Source of the DNA: an uncultured archaeon
GTDB taxonomy: Archaea > Asgardarchaeota > Lokiarchaeia > Sigyniarchaeales > Promethearchaeaceae
Length of the DNA stretch: 14,908 nt
Assembly (NCBI GenBank): GCA_964513765.1
Contig: CAZEPC010000066.1
Span: 1-14,908, forward strand
Reading direction: 5' to 3'
Shown here: in pieces, positions 1,819 through 14,381 of the stretch
How the letters are laid out: each line of letters opens with the position of its first letter
How positions within the stretch are numbered: position 1 is the first letter of the stretch
Notes under the pieces: model-generated
Told to the model about the DNA's origin: nothing
Database searches by the model: none
What the model saw: only the letters and a program-made list of their open reading frames with translations
Program-made: the position numbers and the translations under genes

Positions 1819-1933
1819 GTATTCGGTCATAGGCCGGGAAAAACACCAGTACCCATCCCGAACACTGAAGTTAAGGCCCGGTGCGTAGGGGAATAGTTGT
1901 ATCTTCAATACCGCGAATCCCCTAACTGAATAC
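1819..1933 (+). rRNA. rrf: 5S ribosomal RNA, copy 2
   Basis: The 115 nt are identical to 1456..1570, offset by 363 bp. Confidence 0.88.
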
Positions 1934-2194
1934 TTCCCCTTTATTTTATCACCAAAATCTTAAAATCATAAATCTAATCTTTCAGAAGCAAATTTTGGAA
2001 GTCATAATAAGTTTTTAAATCACCAAACAAAATTCATCCCTCTCTATTAGAGAAGTGGGCTTTTATCGTAAAAAAGCTAAAAAGAGATAAATAATATTCA
2101 CATTCTATGAAATGATAGAAATAAAAACTTCAAAATTAAGAAAAGATTCAAGAATGCAGATAATTTCCTTATTCAAAAAGATCAAAATAAAAAT

Positions 2195-2719
2195 TCAATC
2201 GAATCCAGCTCTATTTAACAGGTTTTTAACCATCAATTTAAAAGATTCATCAATATTTTCACCTGTTTTGGCTGATACTTCAATATGGTCGGCTAAAGCA
2301 TATTTCTCAGATACTTTTTCGGCGTATTCGTAACTCACTTGTCTGTGTTCTTCTAAATCAAGCTTGCTCCCAATTAAGATTATCGGGATAGCTCCAGCGT
2401 TTTCTCTCACGATACTAAGCCAATCACCAATACTGTCGAGAGATTTTTTAGATGTAATATCATATAGAAAGAACGCGGCATTACTTCCCTTGGTGTAGGT
2501 CGGTAAGAGAAATCGGAATCGTTCTTCCCCACCAAAATCCCAAATTTGCAACGAAATCTTCTTCTCATCAATACGAATTTTTTTGGAGAAGAAATCCACT
2601 CCAATAGTAAGACGGGGATTATCGACAAAAACACCTCTGATATACTTATGAGTGAGTGTTGTTTTTCCGACTGATGCTTCTCCGAGCATCAAGACTTTAA
2701 ATGTGTAGTCTGCGGGCAT
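2195..2719 (-). CDS. Ras-superfamily small GTPase, Rab-like
   Basis: 174-aa ORF with an ATG start. G1 is 'GEASVGKT', the switch I/RabF-like motif is 'TIGVDF', G3 is 'WDFGGEERF', G4 is 'GSKLD' and G5 is 'SAKTG'. There is no C-terminal Cys prenylation motif. Confidence 0.9.
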   Translation of the reverse strand: MPADYTFKVLMLGEASVGKTTLTHKYIRGVFVDNPRLTIGVDFFSKKIRIDEKKISLQIWDFGGEERFRFLLPTYTKGSNAAFFLYDITSKKSLDSIGDWLSIVRENAGAIPIILIGSKLDLEEHRQVSYEYAEKVSEKYALADHIEVSAKTGENIDESFKLMVKNLLNRAGFD

Positions 2720-3005: not shown

Positions 3006-4619
3006 TTAGAATAACGAATCTAACCTATTATGACGCTTTTCAAAAAAAGTACTATGATATGTCTTCACAGGTACTTCACGTAAGAATTTTTCACTCAAAA
3101 TGGTCTTAGGAATATTTATATTTTGATCAGTATGAGGATTAGCAAAAGAATTATCAGGGAAATCTTGTAAATGAAAAATTTGATCCTTCTGATTTTGAGA
3201 GTGGTTAGTTTGAGGAAGACTTTTTTGTATTGGAGAGTACACTTTTTCTAATTTTTTCAGCTGATGAACCTTAAATTTACGTTGCAAATGTGCCAAAAAC
3301 ATTTCAAACTCTTGATTTCTCAGATGAGCCCTCAAATGAGCTTCTATCTGAGGGATTGGTAATACACAAGATTTGTTGATCTTGGAGATGGGAAGTAATA
3401 TCTCAGAAATTTCTTTGATTCTTTTTTCCAAACTTTCAATATCCCGCTTCCCAACCGTTTCAATCCTTAAGGGAAAATCATAGGGAGAGATTTGCAAATA
3501 ACTAGCTCCAAAGGAAAAATGATCAAAATTTGTGTATTTATGAAAGAAATAGTAAGGGGAAAATCCAGAGGTGTTTCTTCTTTTTCTTTTCTGATACAAG
3601 GTAGGAACTATATTAAAACAAGTGGTCCTCTGATTTGTATCTAATGTTTTATAAACCATTTCGGTATCGCAGAAACCCTTTAAGAGATCTCGGTATCTTA
3701 TATCATGAAATACATCAAGATCTTTGTGTTTAGATATTAAATATGGAAATGCACGTATTAATAAATCACGGAGCTGACGGGATTTAGTATCTTTGGTTAT
3801 GCCAATGAGGTTTACTCCTTTTTTCTCGCAAATAGTATAGAGTTTAAGATATTTTTTCACGAGTGAAGTATGCATTTTGCGAAGAAGATCTTGAGCGGTA
3901 AACGTACTCTGAAGGGGAGGGGGGATTATGCTCCCATCCAAGATCACGATATCGGGCAATTGAGGATCAGAATTCAGGAACGAAAGAAGTAAAGAGATCT
4001 CTGCATCTTGCCTTCTTAATCCTGCTAAAAGTCTACCGCCCCTATCAAGTACATCTCCATATTCCAAATGATAGGAATACATTTTACCTTCCCTATTTTG
4101 AGAAAAAGGAATAATTTCGGGCTTTTGTGCCTTAAAATTGTACATAATCCCTGCAACTTTGATAAGAGTTACTTGAGCCCCCAAGAATTTATGAAAGCCA
4201 AGACCTCCATCTACTGCTGCGACTCTTGTCCCTCTAAGATCTTCAATAGAAAAGGGGGTTATTTGGTGAGAAAAAGTTCGTGATCCGAATGGTTTAAAAT
4301 CTTTATTCTGATACGCTTGAAGATTCACCAATTTTTGATCACAAAAATAATGATGGAAAATCTTTAAAAAATCCTCCTTGTCTTGCATATGTTCCAAAAA
4401 TGGGTTTAAAGAGGATGAAAAAGATTTCTCTAGAATTTTTCTTTTCGAGTGCAGCACTTGATTGTAATTTGATTGGAGATCTGAAAGTTCCAGTTTTTTA
4501 TTTTCAGAAACCGGTGATTTTTTAGTAAATTTAATATGAGGGTGTTGAGGATCAATATGTGTTTCCATTTTCACATTAATATCCAAATTGCATCTTTTAA
4601 TAAAAATGACCCACTTCAT
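3006..4619 (-). CDS. NurA-domain-like nuclease family protein (divergent, with N- and C-terminal extensions)
   Basis: 537-aa ORF with ATG at 4619 (alternative ATG at 4568). 'RVAAVDGGLG', 'DIVILDGSIIPP' and 'LIGITKDTKSRQL' resemble the conserved NurA (PF09376-type) acidic motifs. The functional call rests on by-eye motif similarity only. Confidence 0.6.
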   Translation of the reverse strand: MKWVIFIKRCNLDINVKMETHIDPQHPHIKFTKKSPVSENKKLELSDLQSNYNQVLHSKRKILEKSFSSSLNPFLEHMQDKEDFLKIFHHYFCDQKLVNLQAYQNKDFKPFGSRTFSHQITPFSIEDLRGTRVAAVDGGLGFHKFLGAQVTLIKVAGIMYNFKAQKPEIIPFSQNREGKMYSYHLEYGDVLDRGGRLLAGLRRQDAEISLLLSFLNSDPQLPDIVILDGSIIPPPLQSTFTAQDLLRKMHTSLVKKYLKLYTICEKKGVNLIGITKDTKSRQLRDLLIRAFPYLISKHKDLDVFHDIRYRDLLKGFCDTEMVYKTLDTNQRTTCFNIVPTLYQKRKRRNTSGFSPYYFFHKYTNFDHFSFGASYLQISPYDFPLRIETVGKRDIESLEKRIKEISEILLPISKINKSCVLPIPQIEAHLRAHLRNQEFEMFLAHLQRKFKVHQLKKLEKVYSPIQKSLPQTNHSQNQKDQIFHLQDFPDNSFANPHTDQNINIPKTILSEKFLREVPVKTYHSTFFEKRHNRLDSLF

Positions 4620-6220: not shown

Positions 6221-8464
6221 ATGGAAAAACGAGATCTTAACAAAAAAGTCGTCGCATTTATGAAAAAAATCCCGAATATTGATTATTTTATCATTTTAAA
6301 TAGCGAAGGGATACCCATTACCAATGTGGCGAGCAGTCGAGACAAGAGGAGGGACCCGGACTATTTATCCTCGATTCTAAGGGTACTTGTTACTCCCTCG
6401 CTCAATATGAAATCTGCCTATGATACCTCCGAGCACCTTATAACAGTCTCTATGTTTTCAAAAATGGTAATTGTCCAGATCAACTTAGAAACCCATTATT
6501 TAGCATTTATAATGGATAAATCCAAATGGCCTATTTCCATTGAGGGATTTTATTCAAAATTAAAAGAACTTTACCTCAAATTATCTCATATTAAAAATCA
6601 CAGAAAGTCTCTTCTCAAAATTGTATATGCAGGGGAACAAAAAACCGATGAGGAAAAAATGGATAAGGCAGCAAAAAAGCTTCAGAAAGCAGAACAGTGC
6701 TTTCAAAGTTTCAGTGCGGGAGATTTCACCCAATATGACATTGAGATCCCCACCTCAGATCCAGAAGAGGCATGCAAAATTATTGGGAATGGACTCACAA
6801 ATTTTTGCATGAAAGTTTCTATTGTGAGTGAAGAGGGAAACATAATTTATCAAAATAAAGAACAGACCACAAAATTATCATACATTAATCTCAATTATTT
6901 ACAAAATCAAGAGGGTGATTTTGAAAATTTGCAGGCAGGGCATCTAATTCTTTCCATCCACTATTTCATGGACGGAGAGGTATTTGTAAGTAGCCCATTG
7001 GGACAAATAGATACCCAAAGGATCGATCTTACCAATCAAATGGCAAATTGGAACGTCGGCTTCAATGAGATTGTAAGTTATAACTATACTGCGGCCGCAA
7101 ATGTACACAATTTATTGCAGTCGGAGGTTTCAAATGATTTCATAGAACTTATAAATTATTTACTTAGTGATATCAATTCACTCCAACAAGAGATAGAATC
7201 ATATCTCAATTCAAATCAGTTTAATAAGGCTATTTCTTTAATGAATAGGGCAGTTTATATACTTCAAAATAATGGTCAATATTCTAATTCTGGAGATTTT
7301 CTGAAATGGATTGGTTATACTTATTTTGAAGCGGGTGAGATCCAAAACTCAATAAAAAATTATCTCTTAGCCAGTAAAGATTATAAAAAAGCGGGAGATT
7401 ATCAAAACCTCGCAAACGATTACACCGATTTGGGTTCGGTTTATGAAACTATTGATAAACCCGCCAGCGCAATGAAATATTATGAAGAAGCAAAACGCAT
7501 ATATCAAGATATTGAAAATCAAGCACAAGTACAAGCCATTGACGAAAAAATATCAGAATTGGAAGCGGAATTGACACAAAAATTACAAGATTATGTACAA
7601 TCCAGGACATTTAAATCAAAATCAATTAGTAAAATGGCCCAAGAATTAGAATTAAACGCAGAAGCACTTCCGAAATCGATTCAGAAATTAATAAGAAATA
7701 ATAAAATCAAGGGTTCCATTAATTTAAGAGCAAACACATACTCGAAAAAGGGCACAGGGCGTACTTTACCGAAGGTAACTGTGCCTTCGTCTGGCAGCAG
7801 TTCAAGTATGTCCAGTAGCAAGAATCAAACATCCGAAGATACTACTCCCAATTACGAAAATGCCCAACAAGAAAAACAACAATTATTGGCAGAAAATCGA
7901 AAATTAGACGCCGATATCTCAAATATAGAGAATAAAATATCCAGAACAAATTTATCCATTATGGATTTCCTTAAATACCAAGGTAAGATTCAAAAGAGAA
8001 ATTTAAATAAGTTGAAGGTACGTATCTATGAGGAACAACCGACCTTTAATGCAGCTGATGGAAGCCCATCAAAATGCGTAATTTGTCTAAAAGAATTTAT
8101 GAATAATGATAAAATAGTGGTGGGCAGTGGATTCCATGGATTTCATACTAAATGTATCAGTAAATGGATAAAAACTCAAGACAAATGTCCTGTATGTGAT
8201 CAAAGGCTTCTTCCATCCATTTTTGAGGAGTCAGATCTGTCAACAAGTGTTGCTATGGGAGATCCACAAGCCGAAGAGAAGATGGAAAGATTAAAAGGAC
8301 AAATAAAAACACTTAAACAATCCTTAGGCGGAGATGCGGACCTATTTGATAAGCTCGTCATGGAACGGGAAAACAAGGCGCGCCTCATGCGAGATATCAA
8401 CAAAAAAGATCAGACTATCCGTGAACTTAAATCCCAACTTAAGGTTTATAAACGACGAGGATGA
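6221..8464 (+). CDS. Multidomain Roadblock/LC7 - TPR-like - winged-helix - coiled-coil - variant RING-H2 protein (putative E3 ligase/GTPase-regulatory scaffold)
   Basis: 747-aa ORF with ATG at 6221. The N-terminal ~120 aa ('KKIPNIDYFIILNSEGIPITNV...LITVSMFSKMVIVQINLETHYLAFIMD') fit the Roadblock/LC7/MglB pattern. A possible second copy lies around 'KVSIVSEEGNIIYQ'. TPR-like repeats span about 7215..7525 ('GYTYFEAGEIQNSIKNYLLASKDYKKAGDYQNLANDYTDLGSVYETIDKPASAMKYYEEAKRIY'). A wHTH-like segment spans about 7620..7745. A Ser-rich linker and heptad-rich segments follow. The RING-H2-like motif 'CVIC-x17-H-x2-H-x2-C-x10-C-x2-C' lies at 8075..8197. Confidence 0.85.
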   Translation: MEKRDLNKKVVAFMKKIPNIDYFIILNSEGIPITNVASSRDKRRDPDYLSSILRVLVTPSLNMKSAYDTSEHLITVSMFSKMVIVQINLETHYLAFIMDKSKWPISIEGFYSKLKELYLKLSHIKNHRKSLLKIVYAGEQKTDEEKMDKAAKKLQKAEQCFQSFSAGDFTQYDIEIPTSDPEEACKIIGNGLTNFCMKVSIVSEEGNIIYQNKEQTTKLSYINLNYLQNQEGDFENLQAGHLILSIHYFMDGEVFVSSPLGQIDTQRIDLTNQMANWNVGFNEIVSYNYTAAANVHNLLQSEVSNDFIELINYLLSDINSLQQEIESYLNSNQFNKAISLMNRAVYILQNNGQYSNSGDFLKWIGYTYFEAGEIQNSIKNYLLASKDYKKAGDYQNLANDYTDLGSVYETIDKPASAMKYYEEAKRIYQDIENQAQVQAIDEKISELEAELTQKLQDYVQSRTFKSKSISKMAQELELNAEALPKSIQKLIRNNKIKGSINLRANTYSKKGTGRTLPKVTVPSSGSSSSMSSSKNQTSEDTTPNYENAQQEKQQLLAENRKLDADISNIENKISRTNLSIMDFLKYQGKIQKRNLNKLKVRIYEEQPTFNAADGSPSKCVICLKEFMNNDKIVVGSGFHGFHTKCISKWIKTQDKCPVCDQRLLPSIFEESDLSTSVAMGDPQAEEKMERLKGQIKTLKQSLGGDADLFDKLVMERENKARLMRDINKKDQTIRELKSQLKVYKRRG

Positions 8465-9520: not shown

Positions 9521-10516
9521 TCAAATAAAGAGCTTGATTTTTTTCGAAAGCCATTGAAAAGCTTGTAATAAATTTTGACCAGTTTTGGCTGAAACTTGAA
9601 ATATCCTATAATTATCAGTATATTCACTTGGATTGTATATATCTTCAACCAAATCTGGGGACATTGAATCATTCAAGTCCATTTTATTGGCGAGTATTAG
9701 CAGGGGAATTGGTTTATTTTTTTTGCTCTTTGAAGTTCCTCGGTAGTAAAACCTAAGAATCCGATTAAATTCGCTTTCGGAGTCCTCATGTTTTTCTTCA
9801 TCACCGGCCGAGTCTATCACATAGATTATTGCATTTGGATGTGATAAAACATGAGTCCATCGGTGTCGCAAGCGTTTCTGACCGCCCACATCATACACCC
9901 GCATCGACATCTGTTCAAAAACTAATTTTAATACTTGGGGCGCGAGCGTCGGTGCCGTATCCTCTTGAAAAACACCTGTAATTAACCTTTTAATGATAGT
10001 CGTTTTTCCGACTGCTTCAACCCCAAAAAATATAATTTGGGCAAGGCCAAGCTTTTCTTTCCCCTTCATTTTATTTATTAAAGTGTTCCTTAGCTGATTC
10101 ATTATCATCCCAATTTTCCTATTTGCTTCCACAGTTTTGAAATTTAGAGGGGGTTCTGCCTTCTCAAATGCCCGAGAAATGGAAGAAATTTTTTTAATTT
10201 GGGCTACAGTATTTTTAAAATCCACCTCAAATATTTTTGGATTTTCTTGTTCATCCAAAATTGCCGTAATCATGAGAACTTCACAACCATTAGGGCTTTG
10301 TTCGGAGGGTACCTCAAAAATAAAATTAACAAAATTTGCATCTTCGGCAATAATAATATCTTCAAAACAGCCATTTTGACTGTTGGATTCTATTATATTT
10401 GAGAGGATGCGTTTAATTTTGGAAGATGATTCAATTGAAGGCTGGGAATATTCAATAACCACACCCTCTTTTTCGGATTGTCGGGATAAAATCAACTGCA
10501 TAATAATATGTGACAA
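9521..10516 (-). CDS. Arf/Sar/SR-beta-like small GTPase with ~150-aa N-terminal longin-like (or roadblock-like) domain
   Basis: 331-aa ORF. The start at 10516 is TTG, with the first ATG at 10501. In the C-terminal half, G1 is 'GVEAVGKT', switch I is 'APTLAPQV', G3 is 'YDVGGQKRLR' (Arf-type DVGGQ), G4 is 'NKMD' and G5 is 'SAKTG'. The N-terminal half has a beta-beta-alpha-beta-beta-beta-alpha hydrophobicity pattern. Confidence 0.85.
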   Translation of the reverse strand: MSHIIMQLILSRQSEKEGVVIEYSQPSIESSSKIKRILSNIIESNSQNGCFEDIIIAEDANFVNFIFEVPSEQSPNGCEVLMITAILDEQENPKIFEVDFKNTVAQIKKISSISRAFEKAEPPLNFKTVEANRKIGMIMNQLRNTLINKMKGKEKLGLAQIIFFGVEAVGKTTIIKRLITGVFQEDTAPTLAPQVLKLVFEQMSMRVYDVGGQKRLRHRWTHVLSHPNAIIYVIDSAGDEEKHEDSESEFNRILRFYYRGTSKSKKNKPIPLLILANKMDLNDSMSPDLVEDIYNPSEYTDNYRIFQVSAKTGQNLLQAFQWLSKKIKLFI

Positions 10517-11607: not shown

Positions 11608-13746
11608 TTATTTCTTATTCTGCTTTTCTTGTTTTCCAATTTCTTTTTCCTGATTATCTTGCACATCTTTATAGGGTTCTTCTTCATAGTAGGAATCTTT
11701 TTTTACTTCTGTTTCCAAATCCTCCACTTCCCTAAGTACGGAAATAAGGTGATCTTTCTCCACTGTTCCATCGGGTATTTTGGCCAAATATGGATATTTT
11801 CCGGTTAAGTCCTCAAATTCTTTTTTATATTCATCCTCTTCCATATTTTTGATCTTTTCCACATCGCTTATGTCTATGCCATGCTTCTTATAGAGTTCTT
11901 TTAACTTTTTTTCTTGTTCTTCAGGATTTCCCACCACAATAGGAATTTGAATACTTGGCATCCAAAAACTATCATTAACATGGTTATAATTTACCATTGC
12001 CATAATCTTGAATTTCCCTTCCTCCGTTGGAACAAAAGCCGAATCAATATTAATTTTTTCATATGGTTTCAGCTTTCCTACTTTCACAATTCTACGTTTG
12101 ATCATAAAAGAATTGGGTACGAAGAAAGTTACTCCAACATTAGTTAATGTTCTTGAACTTGAATTCTCAATGAGTAAGACAACCCGATTTTCCACATCAA
12201 TTTCTAAGTTTCGGGTTAAAATAATTAATTCCATAAATAAGGGTAAGGGCAGTTCTTCCATCTCGAGGGTATATGAGGTTTCGACCAACGCTTTTATTTG
12301 TGGTAGATAATCGTTGTTAAACAGTTCTTTTTGCTTCTCCAAGGGTAAGGTTTCCTTATTCCTTTTCTCAATAAACATTTCAATGTAATTGTTTAAGAAT
12401 TTATTTACTTTTTTATCAAAAACTGCATGGCGTTCGGAAATACCTTCTACAACATCCTTCATATGAATATTTTTCAAATCTGAATCGAAGGATTCATCCA
12501 TTAAATTGAAAAGAAAACTCTTAATTGTTTCCTCGAGTGCGCCAATATTAAACTTAATGTTTTCAAATCGCTCTACCACTTCTCCAGGATTAAAATGCTC
12601 GCCTTCAATGAGAATATCCACCAACTCAAAATCATCATCAACTTCCAAGGCGAAATCAGATAAGGTAGTATGAACGTATTGAGAAATAAGATCATCAAAA
12701 TTTTGGCGCGCTTCCGAATGCCTCCTTTGAAATTCTTTTCTGAACCCTTCCAAGTAGGGGGTGACCTTCCCGCAATGTATTTTCATCAGATCTTTTTGAT
12801 AATCTCTGAATCTTTCTTCAATATTGCTTAACCATCTTTTTGCCGCATAGAAATCCTCCTTGATTTCTTGGGTATAAAAAGGTATTCTCTCATATTGGAT
12901 CTTAAGAGCTTTGAAAGGCTTTTTTTCCCTCATTTCCTCCAATAAGAACATAAGAGATGTTCCCAAATTATAGAAAGTAATTACTTGTTTCTTCAAGGTG
13001 ATGGCCCGCGCATCCGTCAAATCTTTGAGCTTAAGCTCTAATTCCTCCAATTCATCCGCGAAATAGGCGGGGTTATTGGTGGTAAAATCCTCTAAAAGGG
13101 CGCAAAATTTCTCTGCACAATCAGAAAGTGATTCTTCCGACTGAAAATCAACATGATATTCTTTTGCAAATTCTTGGGCATAATTTTTAGCCTGTGCAAA
13201 ATTTTTTTGAGCTTGGTAATAAAAACTTTGAGAATCATCTACTTGATAGGCATCTTTGGCCTTTTGGGTAAAAATCAAGCCGCTTAATTGGATATTTCGT
13301 ATTTTTAAAAGAGAAATCATTTCATTGTATTGTTGAGCTTGAAGATCATTATCCAATAAGGGAACGAGGAATTGTTCTATAATAATAGCAAGTAATCCAA
13401 GGTGCTTCCTTAATTTTTGAATGTCTGTATCTTCTGATAAAAAACTATCTAACTTAGTAATAACGATGAGATCAATCTGACGGCTTTCGGAGAGTAGTTT
13501 ATTAAAATTTTTATCAATTTCCAGCATTCTCTTTTGTATGGTGTTCTTGGATACGCTGTCATTAATTTCCTCAAATTTCCCTTGATATCCAAAGAGATCC
13601 AATAGAACATCCGTGAGCAAATCAAGAGATTCCGTATACCCGTTGGTAGTACCACATGAGAAACACTGCACTGTGGAACCTTTTGTAATTGGTAGATTGA
13701 CCCCGCAATTTACGCAAGGAAGGCTTGTTATAGACATTTTTATCAT
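11608..13746 (-). CDS. Hypothetical protein: N-terminal zinc ribbon, ~450-aa alpha-helical region, beta-sandwich (CARDB/Ig-like) domain, acidic tail
   Basis: 712-aa ORF with ATG at 13746. 'CVNC-x13-CFSC' lies at about 13654..13716. The middle is long and rich in helix-forming residues. An alternating-hydrophobic beta segment 'NRVVLLIENSSSRTLTNVGVTFFVP...GKFKIMAMVNYNH...IQIPIVVGN' lies at about 11925..12189. The C-terminus is rich in E/K/D. I recognise no named family. Confidence 0.8.
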   Translation of the reverse strand: MIKMSITSLPCVNCGVNLPITKGSTVQCFSCGTTNGYTESLDLLTDVLLDLFGYQGKFEEINDSVSKNTIQKRMLEIDKNFNKLLSESRQIDLIVITKLDSFLSEDTDIQKLRKHLGLLAIIIEQFLVPLLDNDLQAQQYNEMISLLKIRNIQLSGLIFTQKAKDAYQVDDSQSFYYQAQKNFAQAKNYAQEFAKEYHVDFQSEESLSDCAEKFCALLEDFTTNNPAYFADELEELELKLKDLTDARAITLKKQVITFYNLGTSLMFLLEEMREKKPFKALKIQYERIPFYTQEIKEDFYAAKRWLSNIEERFRDYQKDLMKIHCGKVTPYLEGFRKEFQRRHSEARQNFDDLISQYVHTTLSDFALEVDDDFELVDILIEGEHFNPGEVVERFENIKFNIGALEETIKSFLFNLMDESFDSDLKNIHMKDVVEGISERHAVFDKKVNKFLNNYIEMFIEKRNKETLPLEKQKELFNNDYLPQIKALVETSYTLEMEELPLPLFMELIILTRNLEIDVENRVVLLIENSSSRTLTNVGVTFFVPNSFMIKRRIVKVGKLKPYEKINIDSAFVPTEEGKFKIMAMVNYNHVNDSFWMPSIQIPIVVGNPEEQEKKLKELYKKHGIDISDVEKIKNMEEDEYKKEFEDLTGKYPYLAKIPDGTVEKDHLISVLREVEDLETEVKKDSYYEEEPYKDVQDNQEKEIGKQEKQNKK

Positions 13747-13886: not shown

Positions 13887-14381
13887 TCAATGGGTAAAAT
13901 AACAGAAAATTTCATCATCGGAGATTTCCTTTGGACAAACGAACCCATAACGAACAAACTGGACAATCTCGTCCCTTGGGACTTCTCTCAAATTAGCCTC
14001 CCCATAGCCTTTTGTAATAGTCCCATCTGGCTGTAATATTTTCACATTTACATAATCATTTTCTGGAACTGCTTGAATTATTTTTCCGCTCTGACCTTTT
14101 TCAAAGGATTTGAATTCTGCCATAACCGGATCACCTAATGAAGATATTTCAACATCAAAAATATCCTTAAAGCGGATTATTTCACCGTTCTTAATTTTGG
14201 GTCGGGTGAGTTTTCCCTTGTAATTATATTCATCCTCCAATTCTTTTTCAGAAATGAAAAGACTTGATTGATTTTGTTTAATTCTAACATGAACATTCCT
14301 TGACCCTTTTGATTCATCATTTGGATTAGTATATTCTGTATCTAAAATCCAATGGTCTATTTGATTTGATATATATGTCAT
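13887..14381 (-). CDS. Stand-alone GluRS/GlnRS C-terminal anticodon-binding-domain-like protein (tRNA-synt_1c_C-like), no catalytic domain
   Basis: 164-aa ORF with an ATG start. The C-terminus 'VNVKILQPDGTITKGYGEANLREVPRDEIVQFVRYGFVCPKE..IFCYFTH' closely resembles the archaeal/eukaryotic-type GluRS C-terminal signature ('..G.aE..l..l..GdvVQFERfGFvRvD...vf.y.H'). No HIGH or KMSKS motif occurs in this ORF or its neighbour. Confidence 0.65.
   Translation of the reverse strand: MTYISNQIDHWILDTEYTNPNDESKGSRNVHVRIKQNQSSLFISEKELEDEYNYKGKLTRPKIKNGEIIRFKDIFDVEISSLGDPVMAEFKSFEKGQSGKIIQAVPENDYVNVKILQPDGTITKGYGEANLREVPRDEIVQFVRYGFVCPKEISDDEIFCYFTH

Follow-up and report, generated by a model that had tools for sequence, protein, structure and literature searches.

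A longin–Arf fusion protein from an Asgard archaeon, and the possible kinship of its family to the longin domains of eukaryotic GTPase-activating proteins

Arf and Rag GTPases working under longin complexes underlie eukaryotic membrane traffic and nutrient signalling, and the origin of these pairings is a question of eukaryogenesis. The catalytic longins of FLCN, NPRL2, SMCR8 and C9orf72 are marked by a Gly-Pro pair (‘GP’) in the β1–β2 loop together with a nearby arginine finger (PMC12290439). Some Asgard longins carry both features too, and the same study raised the question of whether they partner ArfR or Rag GTPases. Fusions of longins to GTPases have already been reported from Asgard archaea (bioRxiv 10.1101/2020.10.19.343400; PMC10933270; PMC11914678); in MK-D1, 26 of the 74 small GTPases are combined with Roadblock or longin domains (PMC10933270). 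Here, we describe one such gene, encoded at 9521..10501 on the minus strand of a 14,908-nucleotide stretch of DNA (‘the window’; contig CAZEPC010000066.1 of assembly GCA_964513765.1) from an uncultured archaeon. The source resembles Lokiarchaeia: the proteasome β subunit encoded in the window shares 67% identity with its counterpart in Ca. Harpocratesius repetitus (Promethearchaeaceae). The protein consists of a longin domain at its N-terminus and a C-terminal GTPase (G) domain of the Arf family. This architecture is not new, and the gene is a further example of the published Asgard fusion class. In the texts of the published fusion papers we found no statement that places the fused longins in the GP/Arg-finger class, and no description of a fusion branch from which both motifs are absent. 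The family to which the N-terminal domain belongs gives, for many of its members, a direct genomic answer to the question raised in PMC12290439 (2025), namely covalent fusion to Arf-type G domains. In the variant represented by the window protein, the catalytic signature is absent.

The open reading frame (ORF) at 9521..10516, minus strand, was confirmed by re-translation, and the translation carries all of the motifs quoted in an earlier, sequence-only reading of this DNA. That reading left the start codon ambiguous between TTG 10516 and ATG 10501. We settle on ATG 10501, because the N-terminus MQLIL is conserved in both full-length homologues (P0002 and P0003), where it aligns with this codon, and because gene callers produce the same 326-aa (amino acid) product on two assemblies. 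The coding sequence, complete at 9521..10501, specifies 326 aa plus a stop, and the five codons from TTG 10516, judged by these alignments, lie outside the protein. An identical protein, again with a proteasome β gene downstream, is encoded on an independent ENA metagenome contig (L003), and so the gene is not an accident of assembly. A search of 5.8 billion proteins yielded two full-length homologues, P0002 (54% identity) and P0003 (41%). Scans of genome and metagenome contigs with the N-domain and full-length alignments gave no match in either contig collection.

Residues 1–150 (10052..10501) are predicted to form a longin domain. The better of two AlphaFold2 (AF2) models, built on a 48-sequence alignment of relatives, has a mean predicted local distance difference test score (pLDDT) of 87.4 and a predicted template modelling score (pTM) of 0.68, and combines a longin topology with a G fold; within the longin region pLDDT lies mostly between 76 and 96. 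Strands (E) and helices (H) follow one another as E2-9, E13-20, H27-40, E50-54, E57-65, E73-81, H88-103, H108-112 and H121-149; that is, β1-β2-α1-β3-β4-β5-α2-(short helix)-α3. This is the longin order, and since the first element is a strand the domain is not a Roadblock, which starts with a helix. A first, shallow model (three sequences, pLDDT 60.6) had the same topology. The sequence-only reading had predicted just this, a β-β-α-β-β-β-α longin rather than a Roadblock, and had proposed AlphaFold as the check; the prediction is reproduced, the region being confidently folded and neither disordered nor of an unrelated fold.

Structural comparison by Foldseek agrees. Matches to the N-domain surfaced in the list for the first model because its G domain was poorly modelled; they comprise the longin domain in 8yqg, from a Lokiarchaeal Roadblock-Longin protein (E=7e-4; template modelling score TMt 0.57; 145 columns), and 9v0j_A, a chain of a GATOR1-KICSTOR structure (E=7e-4). 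The 9v0j entry includes NPRL2, and chain A, whose length of 363 fits that protein, may be NPRL2. These longin matches stem only from the weaker model, and G-domain matches fill the list of the better one. Sequence models, for their part, are unable to classify the N-domain. No Pfam model is significant for it or for 42 relatives—the best scores, those of single members, were E=0.025–0.043, to Afi1 and Folliculin—and a PDB sequence search with a 42-sequence N-domain profile returned no longin but coiled-coil noise, such as NEMO. In the comparison with longin and SRX that the earlier reading suggested, the domain is a longin by structure, with no support from the Pfam longin models or from an SRX profile.

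When 1.84 billion representative proteins were searched with a profile built from three N-domains, 120 clusters (50% identity) were retrieved at E≤0.001. Most comprise proteins of 290–340 aa in which the longin domain begins at residue 1, and about half are fused to small-GTPase domains. When 121 family sequences were scanned against Pfam, Arf was found in 54, Ras in 48 and V4R (TRAPPC3-type) in 9, and no curated longin model matched any of the 121. Members with named sources, identified in a second search, are all Asgard (Promethearchaeota, Thor-, Loki-, Hod- and Hermodarchaeota), and are labelled ‘hypothetical’ except for one, ‘zinc ribbon domain-containing’. The family takes other forms as well. 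Stand-alone longins of 160–270 aa are common in the same Asgard lineages; nine clusters are V4R/TRAPPC3-type fusions; some proteins of about 300 aa have no P-loop; and in at least one member the G domain is strongly Ras/Rab-like (best Ras E=7.6e-57).

The consensus sequence of the family is ‘LSYFDxxxGPxxF...GFFE...NYxFxIPSxWARGxxExLMxS...IYKAFY’. It places a GP in the β1–β2 loop, and an arginine, within the motif S-x-W-A-R-G, in the β4–β5 loop. We compared the family profile by hhalign with human longins, the query sequences of FLCN, NPRL2, C9orf72, AP2S1, SEC22B and SRα having been checked against PDB entries. Against an eight-sequence NPRL2 profile, the family scores 27.1 in local mode (P=7e-4) and 24.9 in global mode (P=1e-4); against C9orf72 it scores 24.1 (P=0.002). 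Longins of proteins that are not GTPase-activating proteins (GAPs) served as controls and scored far lower: AP2 σ 10.6 (P=0.37), Sec22b 11.4 (P=0.26) and SRX 11.9 (P=0.22). With shuffled columns, local scores were 11.7±2.2 and global scores 3.1±2.3; in 100 shuffles the observed NPRL2 scores were never reached. In the global alignment with NPRL2, the two GP motifs coincide and the arginine of the family lies opposite Arg78 of NPRL2, and because of this register the family resembles the eukaryotic ‘GAP longins’. Kinship to them appears well supported by motif and register.

The window protein itself has lost both motifs. At the GP position it reads EKEGVVIE, Gly13-Val14 of the β1–β2 loop (10460..10465) being the degenerate GP site, and at the position of ‘PSxWARGxxE’ it reads PSEQSPNGCE. 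The β4–β5 loop, SEQSPNGCE (10280..10306), contains neither Arg nor Lys; the arginine is absent, and Ser66 and Glu74 are kept. P0002 reads NS at the GP position. Among 112 scorable family representatives GP occurs in 93 and both motifs in 82, while 16 have neither. Fifteen of these 16, the window protein included, are G-domain fusions and the other is a fragment of 112 aa, so that complete loss is confined to the GTPase-fused branch. This branch includes the window protein with P0002, P0013 and P0015–P0018 as its nearest relatives; P0003 and P0014 keep the GP and lack the arginine. Membership in the family is not affected: hhalign joins the window branch to the motif-bearing members at 99.95% probability (E=1e-38). 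To those of the two nearest homologues the N-domain is 32–48% identical, and 38 of its positions are invariant. The residues Cys45-Phe46-Glu47, Ser66 and Cys73-Glu74, which should lie on the face of the lost motifs, are invariant across the three closest sequences.

Two of these residues form a pattern of their own. Cys45 and Cys73 (within residues 45–74, 10280-10369) are invariant in the three closest sequences and absent from the wider family, and Cys45 aligns with a Phe of the family GFFE motif. From the strand order of the model, both cysteines should share a face with the lost GP and Arg motifs, and they could constitute a site specific to the subclade.

The C-terminal half, residues 152–326 (9524..10048), is an Arf-family G domain by Pfam, by phmmer and by Foldseek. 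Pfam Arf (PF00025) matches residues 142–322 with E=1.3e-32 and 113.1 bits, against a cut-off of 22.3 bits; Ras (47.6 bits), SRPRB (39.9, a partial match) and Gtr1_RagA (25.9) score lower on the same domain. The small GTPase encoded elsewhere in the window at 2195-2719 shows the reverse (Ras 155 bits, Arf 51). The best 60 phmmer matches in the PDB are all Arf, Arl or HodArfR1, headed by Arl3 (E=2e-21, 79 bits) and HodArfR1 (E=4.6e-20, 75 bits), with no Rag, Rab or SRβ among them. Likewise, the best 50 Foldseek matches of the better AF2 model are all Arf, Arl or ArfR proteins, mostly in GTP-bound forms, which the model of the protein resembles; for compact single-chain targets TMt is about 0.73–0.89, and the root-mean-square deviation mostly 2–3 Å.

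The motifs of this domain, G1 to G5, are all present, in the Arf-type versions GVEAVGKT, PT, DVGGQKRLRHRW, NKMD and SAK, and were located by translation, motif table and PDB alignments with their coordinates checked. The P-loop (G1) lies at 10001..10024; Pro184-Thr185 of switch I, which includes the G2 threonine, at 9947..9952; G3, DVGGQ with the catalytic Gln208, at 9878..9892; G4 at 9677..9688; and G5 at 9584..9592. An Arf-type switch II, KRLRHRW, follows G3, so that the stretch reads GGQKRLRHRW where Arf1 has GGQDKIRPLW. The Arf signatures ascribed to this half of the protein before are therefore real. That ascription, however, was to an ‘Arf/SR-beta-like’ GTPase, and its second part does not hold. 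On sequence criteria the G domain is Arf-like and not SRβ-like: SRβ identity (PF09439) was rejected because SRPRB, with 39.9 bits over a partial match, falls far short of the 113 bits of Arf, and because the N-terminus is a soluble longin. The wider analogy to SRβ and SRX was rejected on the same SRPRB score and on the comparison of the N-domain profile with SRX given above.

The two domains are joined by a long helix rather than by a flexible linker, since in the AF2 model α3 (residues 121–149; 10055..10141), 29 residues in length, stops four residues short of G-domain strand β1 (E154-160). The defining feature of Arfs is an amphipathic N-terminal helix that docks in the GDP form and is freed on GTP binding (bioRxiv 10.1101/2024.02.28.582541). 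The window protein has no free N-terminal helix, because the longin domain precedes the G domain, and alignments with Arfs reach into residues 138–152, the end of this same helix. The Pfam Arf match starts at residue 142, and PDB alignments with Arf1, Arf4 and Arl2 start at residues 138–146; with the P-loop glycines in register, N3, F5, N7, F9, K10 and G11 of Arf1 fall on N139, L141, N143, M145, K146 and G147. The Arf1-helix-like pattern at the junction is weak in relatives (48-sequence alignment).

One further feature distinguishes the G domain from Arl3 and HodArfR1. The sequence-only reading described an insert of about 20 aa between G3 and G4, and this was an overestimate. In the PDB alignments, DSAGDEEKHEDSESEF is matched by the usual β4–α3 segment of Arl3 and HodArfR1, and what is truly extra relative to these two proteins amounts to 8 and 7 residues, plus one single-residue gap, around GTSKSKKNK, just before β5. 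The basic α3–β5 loop TSKSKKNKPI (9707..9736) is thus some 8–9 aa longer than theirs. Most of the 48 aligned family members have the same added length, and residues 257–259, within the loop, are the sole stretch with pLDDT below 50. The loop is a flexible, basic, family-wide extension, not one peculiar to the window gene.

What might such a protein do? The sequence-only reading proposed that a fusion of longin to GTPase could be self-regulating or dimerising. The fusion stands; self-regulation is weakened by the absence of GP and arginine here, and a putative dimerising role is plausible. By analogy with eukaryotic longin pairs, we lean towards a nucleotide switch carrying a non-catalytic longin, used for dimerisation or for docking of a partner in the manner of FNIP2 or NPRL3, rather than a GTPase with a built-in GAP. 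All of the nucleotide-binding and catalytic motifs are kept, including the catalytic Gln, so the protein would cycle between GTP and GDP forms. Its longin would supply no catalytic arginine, and would serve instead as a non-catalytic platform, as FNIP2, NPRL3 and C9orf72 do in their longin pairs. It might pair with a second copy of itself, or with a GP/Arg longin that stands alone and has its gene elsewhere in the genome; this pairing could present the fused Arf domain to a regulator or an effector. If, as the register of the P-loops suggests, the end of the last longin helix corresponds to the amphipathic-helix segment of Arfs, the longin would occupy the site of the membrane-binding helix of free Arfs, and the interswitch movement that accompanies GTP binding would probably shift it. 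The interswitch toggle, a register shift of two residues between the GDP and GTP forms that is known for Arfs and ArfRs, would then move a longin domain and free no membrane anchor.

Several points weigh against this reading, or against the kinship on which it draws. The idea of a dimer or partner comes from sequence and analogy. No second member of the longin family, a possible partner, was found in the window, and no neighbour of the longin-Arf gene is conserved among relatives, which makes the partner longin hypothetical. The score of the family against FLCN, 14.8 (P=0.13), is not significant, although the alignment falls on the SLARG segment of FLCN that holds Arg164. The window subclade alone scores 16.3 against NPRL2 (P=0.09), and for the family the hhalign probability against NPRL2 is just 27–30%; with probabilities near 30%, kinship to the GAP longins is not proven statistically. 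Nor does loss of the arginine alone exclude GAP activity, since Roadblock GAPs of the MglB type act without an arginine finger (PMC10933270). Finally, the assignment of the G domain is made at the level of the Arf family, and not at that of the published ArfR and ArfL/Rag-like clades. This matters for naming, because many of the longin-fused GTPases of MK-D1 were termed ‘Rag-like but also close to Arf’ (PMC10933270).

It is from the MglB precedent that the first alternative arises, a built-in GAP in which the longin positions Gln208 without an arginine finger, acting on its own G domain or on that of a homodimer partner, much as MglB acts on MglA. The wider family has the look of the catalytic GAP longins, and its fusion partner is the presumed substrate; the surface that bore the motifs is still conserved in the subclade (C45-F46-E47, S66 and C73-E74), and the catalytic Gln is kept. 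Set against this, the protein has neither of the motifs linked to GAP activity in PMC12290439, and the loop SEQSPNGCE offers no basic residue of any kind. We consider a built-in GAP unlikely, though it is the strongest of the alternatives.

A second possibility, somewhat less likely again, is that the longin is of the guanine nucleotide exchange factor (GEF) or effector type, resembling the exchange platforms of TRAPP, Mon1-Ccz1 and DENN, or binding a GTP form as SRX does, and acting either on its own G domain or on another, such as the Rab-like GTPase at 2195-2719. Most longin and Roadblock platforms are GEFs rather than GAPs (PMC10933270), loss of the GAP motifs would leave a generic longin surface, and several small GTPases are encoded nearby. 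The relatives that can be demonstrated, however, are those of the GP/Arg class (scores of 24–27, against 10.6–11.9 for the controls) rather than longins of the TRAPP, adaptin, SNARE or SRX kinds, and the gene has no conserved linkage to another GTPase gene.

It is improbable that the protein is simply a decaying paralogue, a redundant copy whose longin is losing its function and which has no specific role. The diagnostic motifs are indeed lost, and the subclade is rare: the search of 5.8 billion proteins yielded the two full-length relatives mentioned, and the scans of the two contig collections yielded none. But all of the G motifs are intact, the N-domain retains its 38 invariant positions at 32–48% identity to its two closest homologues as well as a confidently predicted fold, and the motif-less state is common to several 50%-identity clusters, from which we take it to be old and maintained. 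An artefact of assembly or annotation, in which separate longin and Arf genes were merged, is effectively refuted by an uninterrupted reading frame, the identical protein on an independent assembly, some 50 clusters of the same architecture and length, and a single continuous helix across the junction in the AF2 model.

The preferred reading, a switch with a non-catalytic longin, invites a broader and more tentative proposal. Perhaps the ancestral client of catalytic longins of the NPRL2, FLCN and SMCR8 type was an Arf-family GTPase fused to the longin in cis, the Asgard fusions serving as a ‘Rosetta stone’, with the window subclade the archaeal counterpart of the non-catalytic half of a pair, like FNIP2, NPRL3 or C9orf72. 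We regard this as possible rather than probable. If it is true, the division of longins into catalytic and non-catalytic forms predates the eukaryotes, and the question of PMC12290439 concerning the GTPase partners of Asgard longins with GP motifs is answered.

The genomic surroundings add little to the function of the gene. In a co-directional run, it follows the genes of a 712-aa zinc-ribbon protein and of an EamA transporter and precedes the proteasome β gene. Beside its relatives the neighbours are different: a TPR-kinase, an IS110 transposase, a PAP2 protein or unknown ORFs. Since these neighbours are not conserved, we reject any inference of function from an operon, including any tie to its two immediate neighbours, the EamA transporter and proteasome β genes. 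Two candidate homologies that might have suggested conservation were also rejected. The 324-aa ORF upstream of the Ca. Harpocratesius proteasome gene is unrelated, and so, in spite of its similar length, is the 711-aa ORF that lies upstream of the P0361 homologue when compared with the 712-aa ORF of the window. The lack of conserved neighbours fits what is known of Asgard GTPase genes, which generally lie outside operons with putative regulators (PMC10933270). No Pfam model matches the 712-aa protein (11608-13746, minus strand), which carries a CxxC...CxxC zinc ribbon at its N-terminus; the stop codon of its gene abuts the start of the EamA transporter gene, itself upstream of the longin-Arf gene.

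Elsewhere in the window, two other genes belong to the world of small GTPases and their platforms. The 174-aa Ras/Rab-like GTPase at 2195-2719 (minus strand; Pfam Ras 155 bits) has WDFGGEE as its G3, with Glu in place of the catalytic Gln of Rabs. A 747-aa protein (6221-8464, plus strand) begins with a Roadblock of the LAMTOR3/MAPKK1_Int type (E=3.5e-5 when scanned alone), continues with a TPR/SNAP-like region and a weak PCI-like match, and ends in a RING-H2 finger (E=1.6e-10), tying a Roadblock platform to a putative ubiquitin ligase. The remaining features are of other kinds. Tandem 5S rRNA genes occur at 1456-1571 and 1819-1934 (plus strand; 60.6 bits each, Rfam), within 1423-2002; both are inside a 217-nt direct repeat, 99% identical, whose copies are 363 nt apart from start to start. 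On the minus strand, 129-1361 encodes a 410-aa BNR/sialidase-like protein, and 3006-4619 a 537-aa homologue of NurA-domain nucleases, beside which the window has no HerA-like gene. The 164-aa ORF at 13887-14381, also on the minus strand, matches just one domain of class I Glu/Gln-tRNA synthetases, the C-terminal one that binds the anticodon (PF20974, E=2.4e-7); the gene is stand-alone and fragment-like.

How, then, does this protein compare with systems already known? The closest are the fusions of Prometheoarchaeum MK-D1 (PMC10933270) and the AArfs with an N-terminal longin (PMC11914678), which share the architecture, an Arf/Rag-like GTPase, the phylum and the lack of an operon partner. The stand-alone Asgard GTPases HodArfR1 and GerdArfR1 (PDB 8ouk, 8oul, 8oum and 8oun) are about 30% identical to the G domain (Foldseek TMt 0.83–0.84), and share with it the Arf-type switch II and the catalytic Gln; they are proteins of about 180 aa with a free, membrane-binding amphipathic helix, whereas the window protein has a longin in that place. 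In SRα SRX-SRβ, a longin-like domain is likewise paired with an Arf-related GTPase, but the two are separate chains, SRβ is anchored in the membrane, and the N-domain shows no significant similarity to SRX (score 11.9, P=0.22). In MglA-MglB, a bacterial Ras-like GTPase is regulated by a Roadblock GAP, a dimeric member of the Roadblock/longin superfamily that works with no arginine finger; MglB, however, has the Roadblock topology, helix first, and is a separate protein, and the G domain described here is of the Arf type and not the MglA type. There remain the eukaryotic complexes GATOR1 (NPRL2-NPRL3, acting on RagA), FLCN-FNIP2 (RagC) and C9orf72-SMCR8 (Arf1), with which the protein has in common the longin fold and a client of the Arf/Rag type. 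The wider Asgard family shares, in addition, the GP of the eukaryotic GAP longins and an arginine that aligns with R78 of NPRL2 and with the segment of FLCN, ‘SLARG’, that holds R164; the statistical backing for this is modest (hhalign probability about 30%). Unlike those longins, the window protein has its GTPase covalently attached, and in place of a DENN domain or the C-terminal domain of NPRL2 its C-terminal domain is the Arf itself. Without the GP and the arginine, it stands nearer to FNIP2 and NPRL3 than to the catalytic longins.

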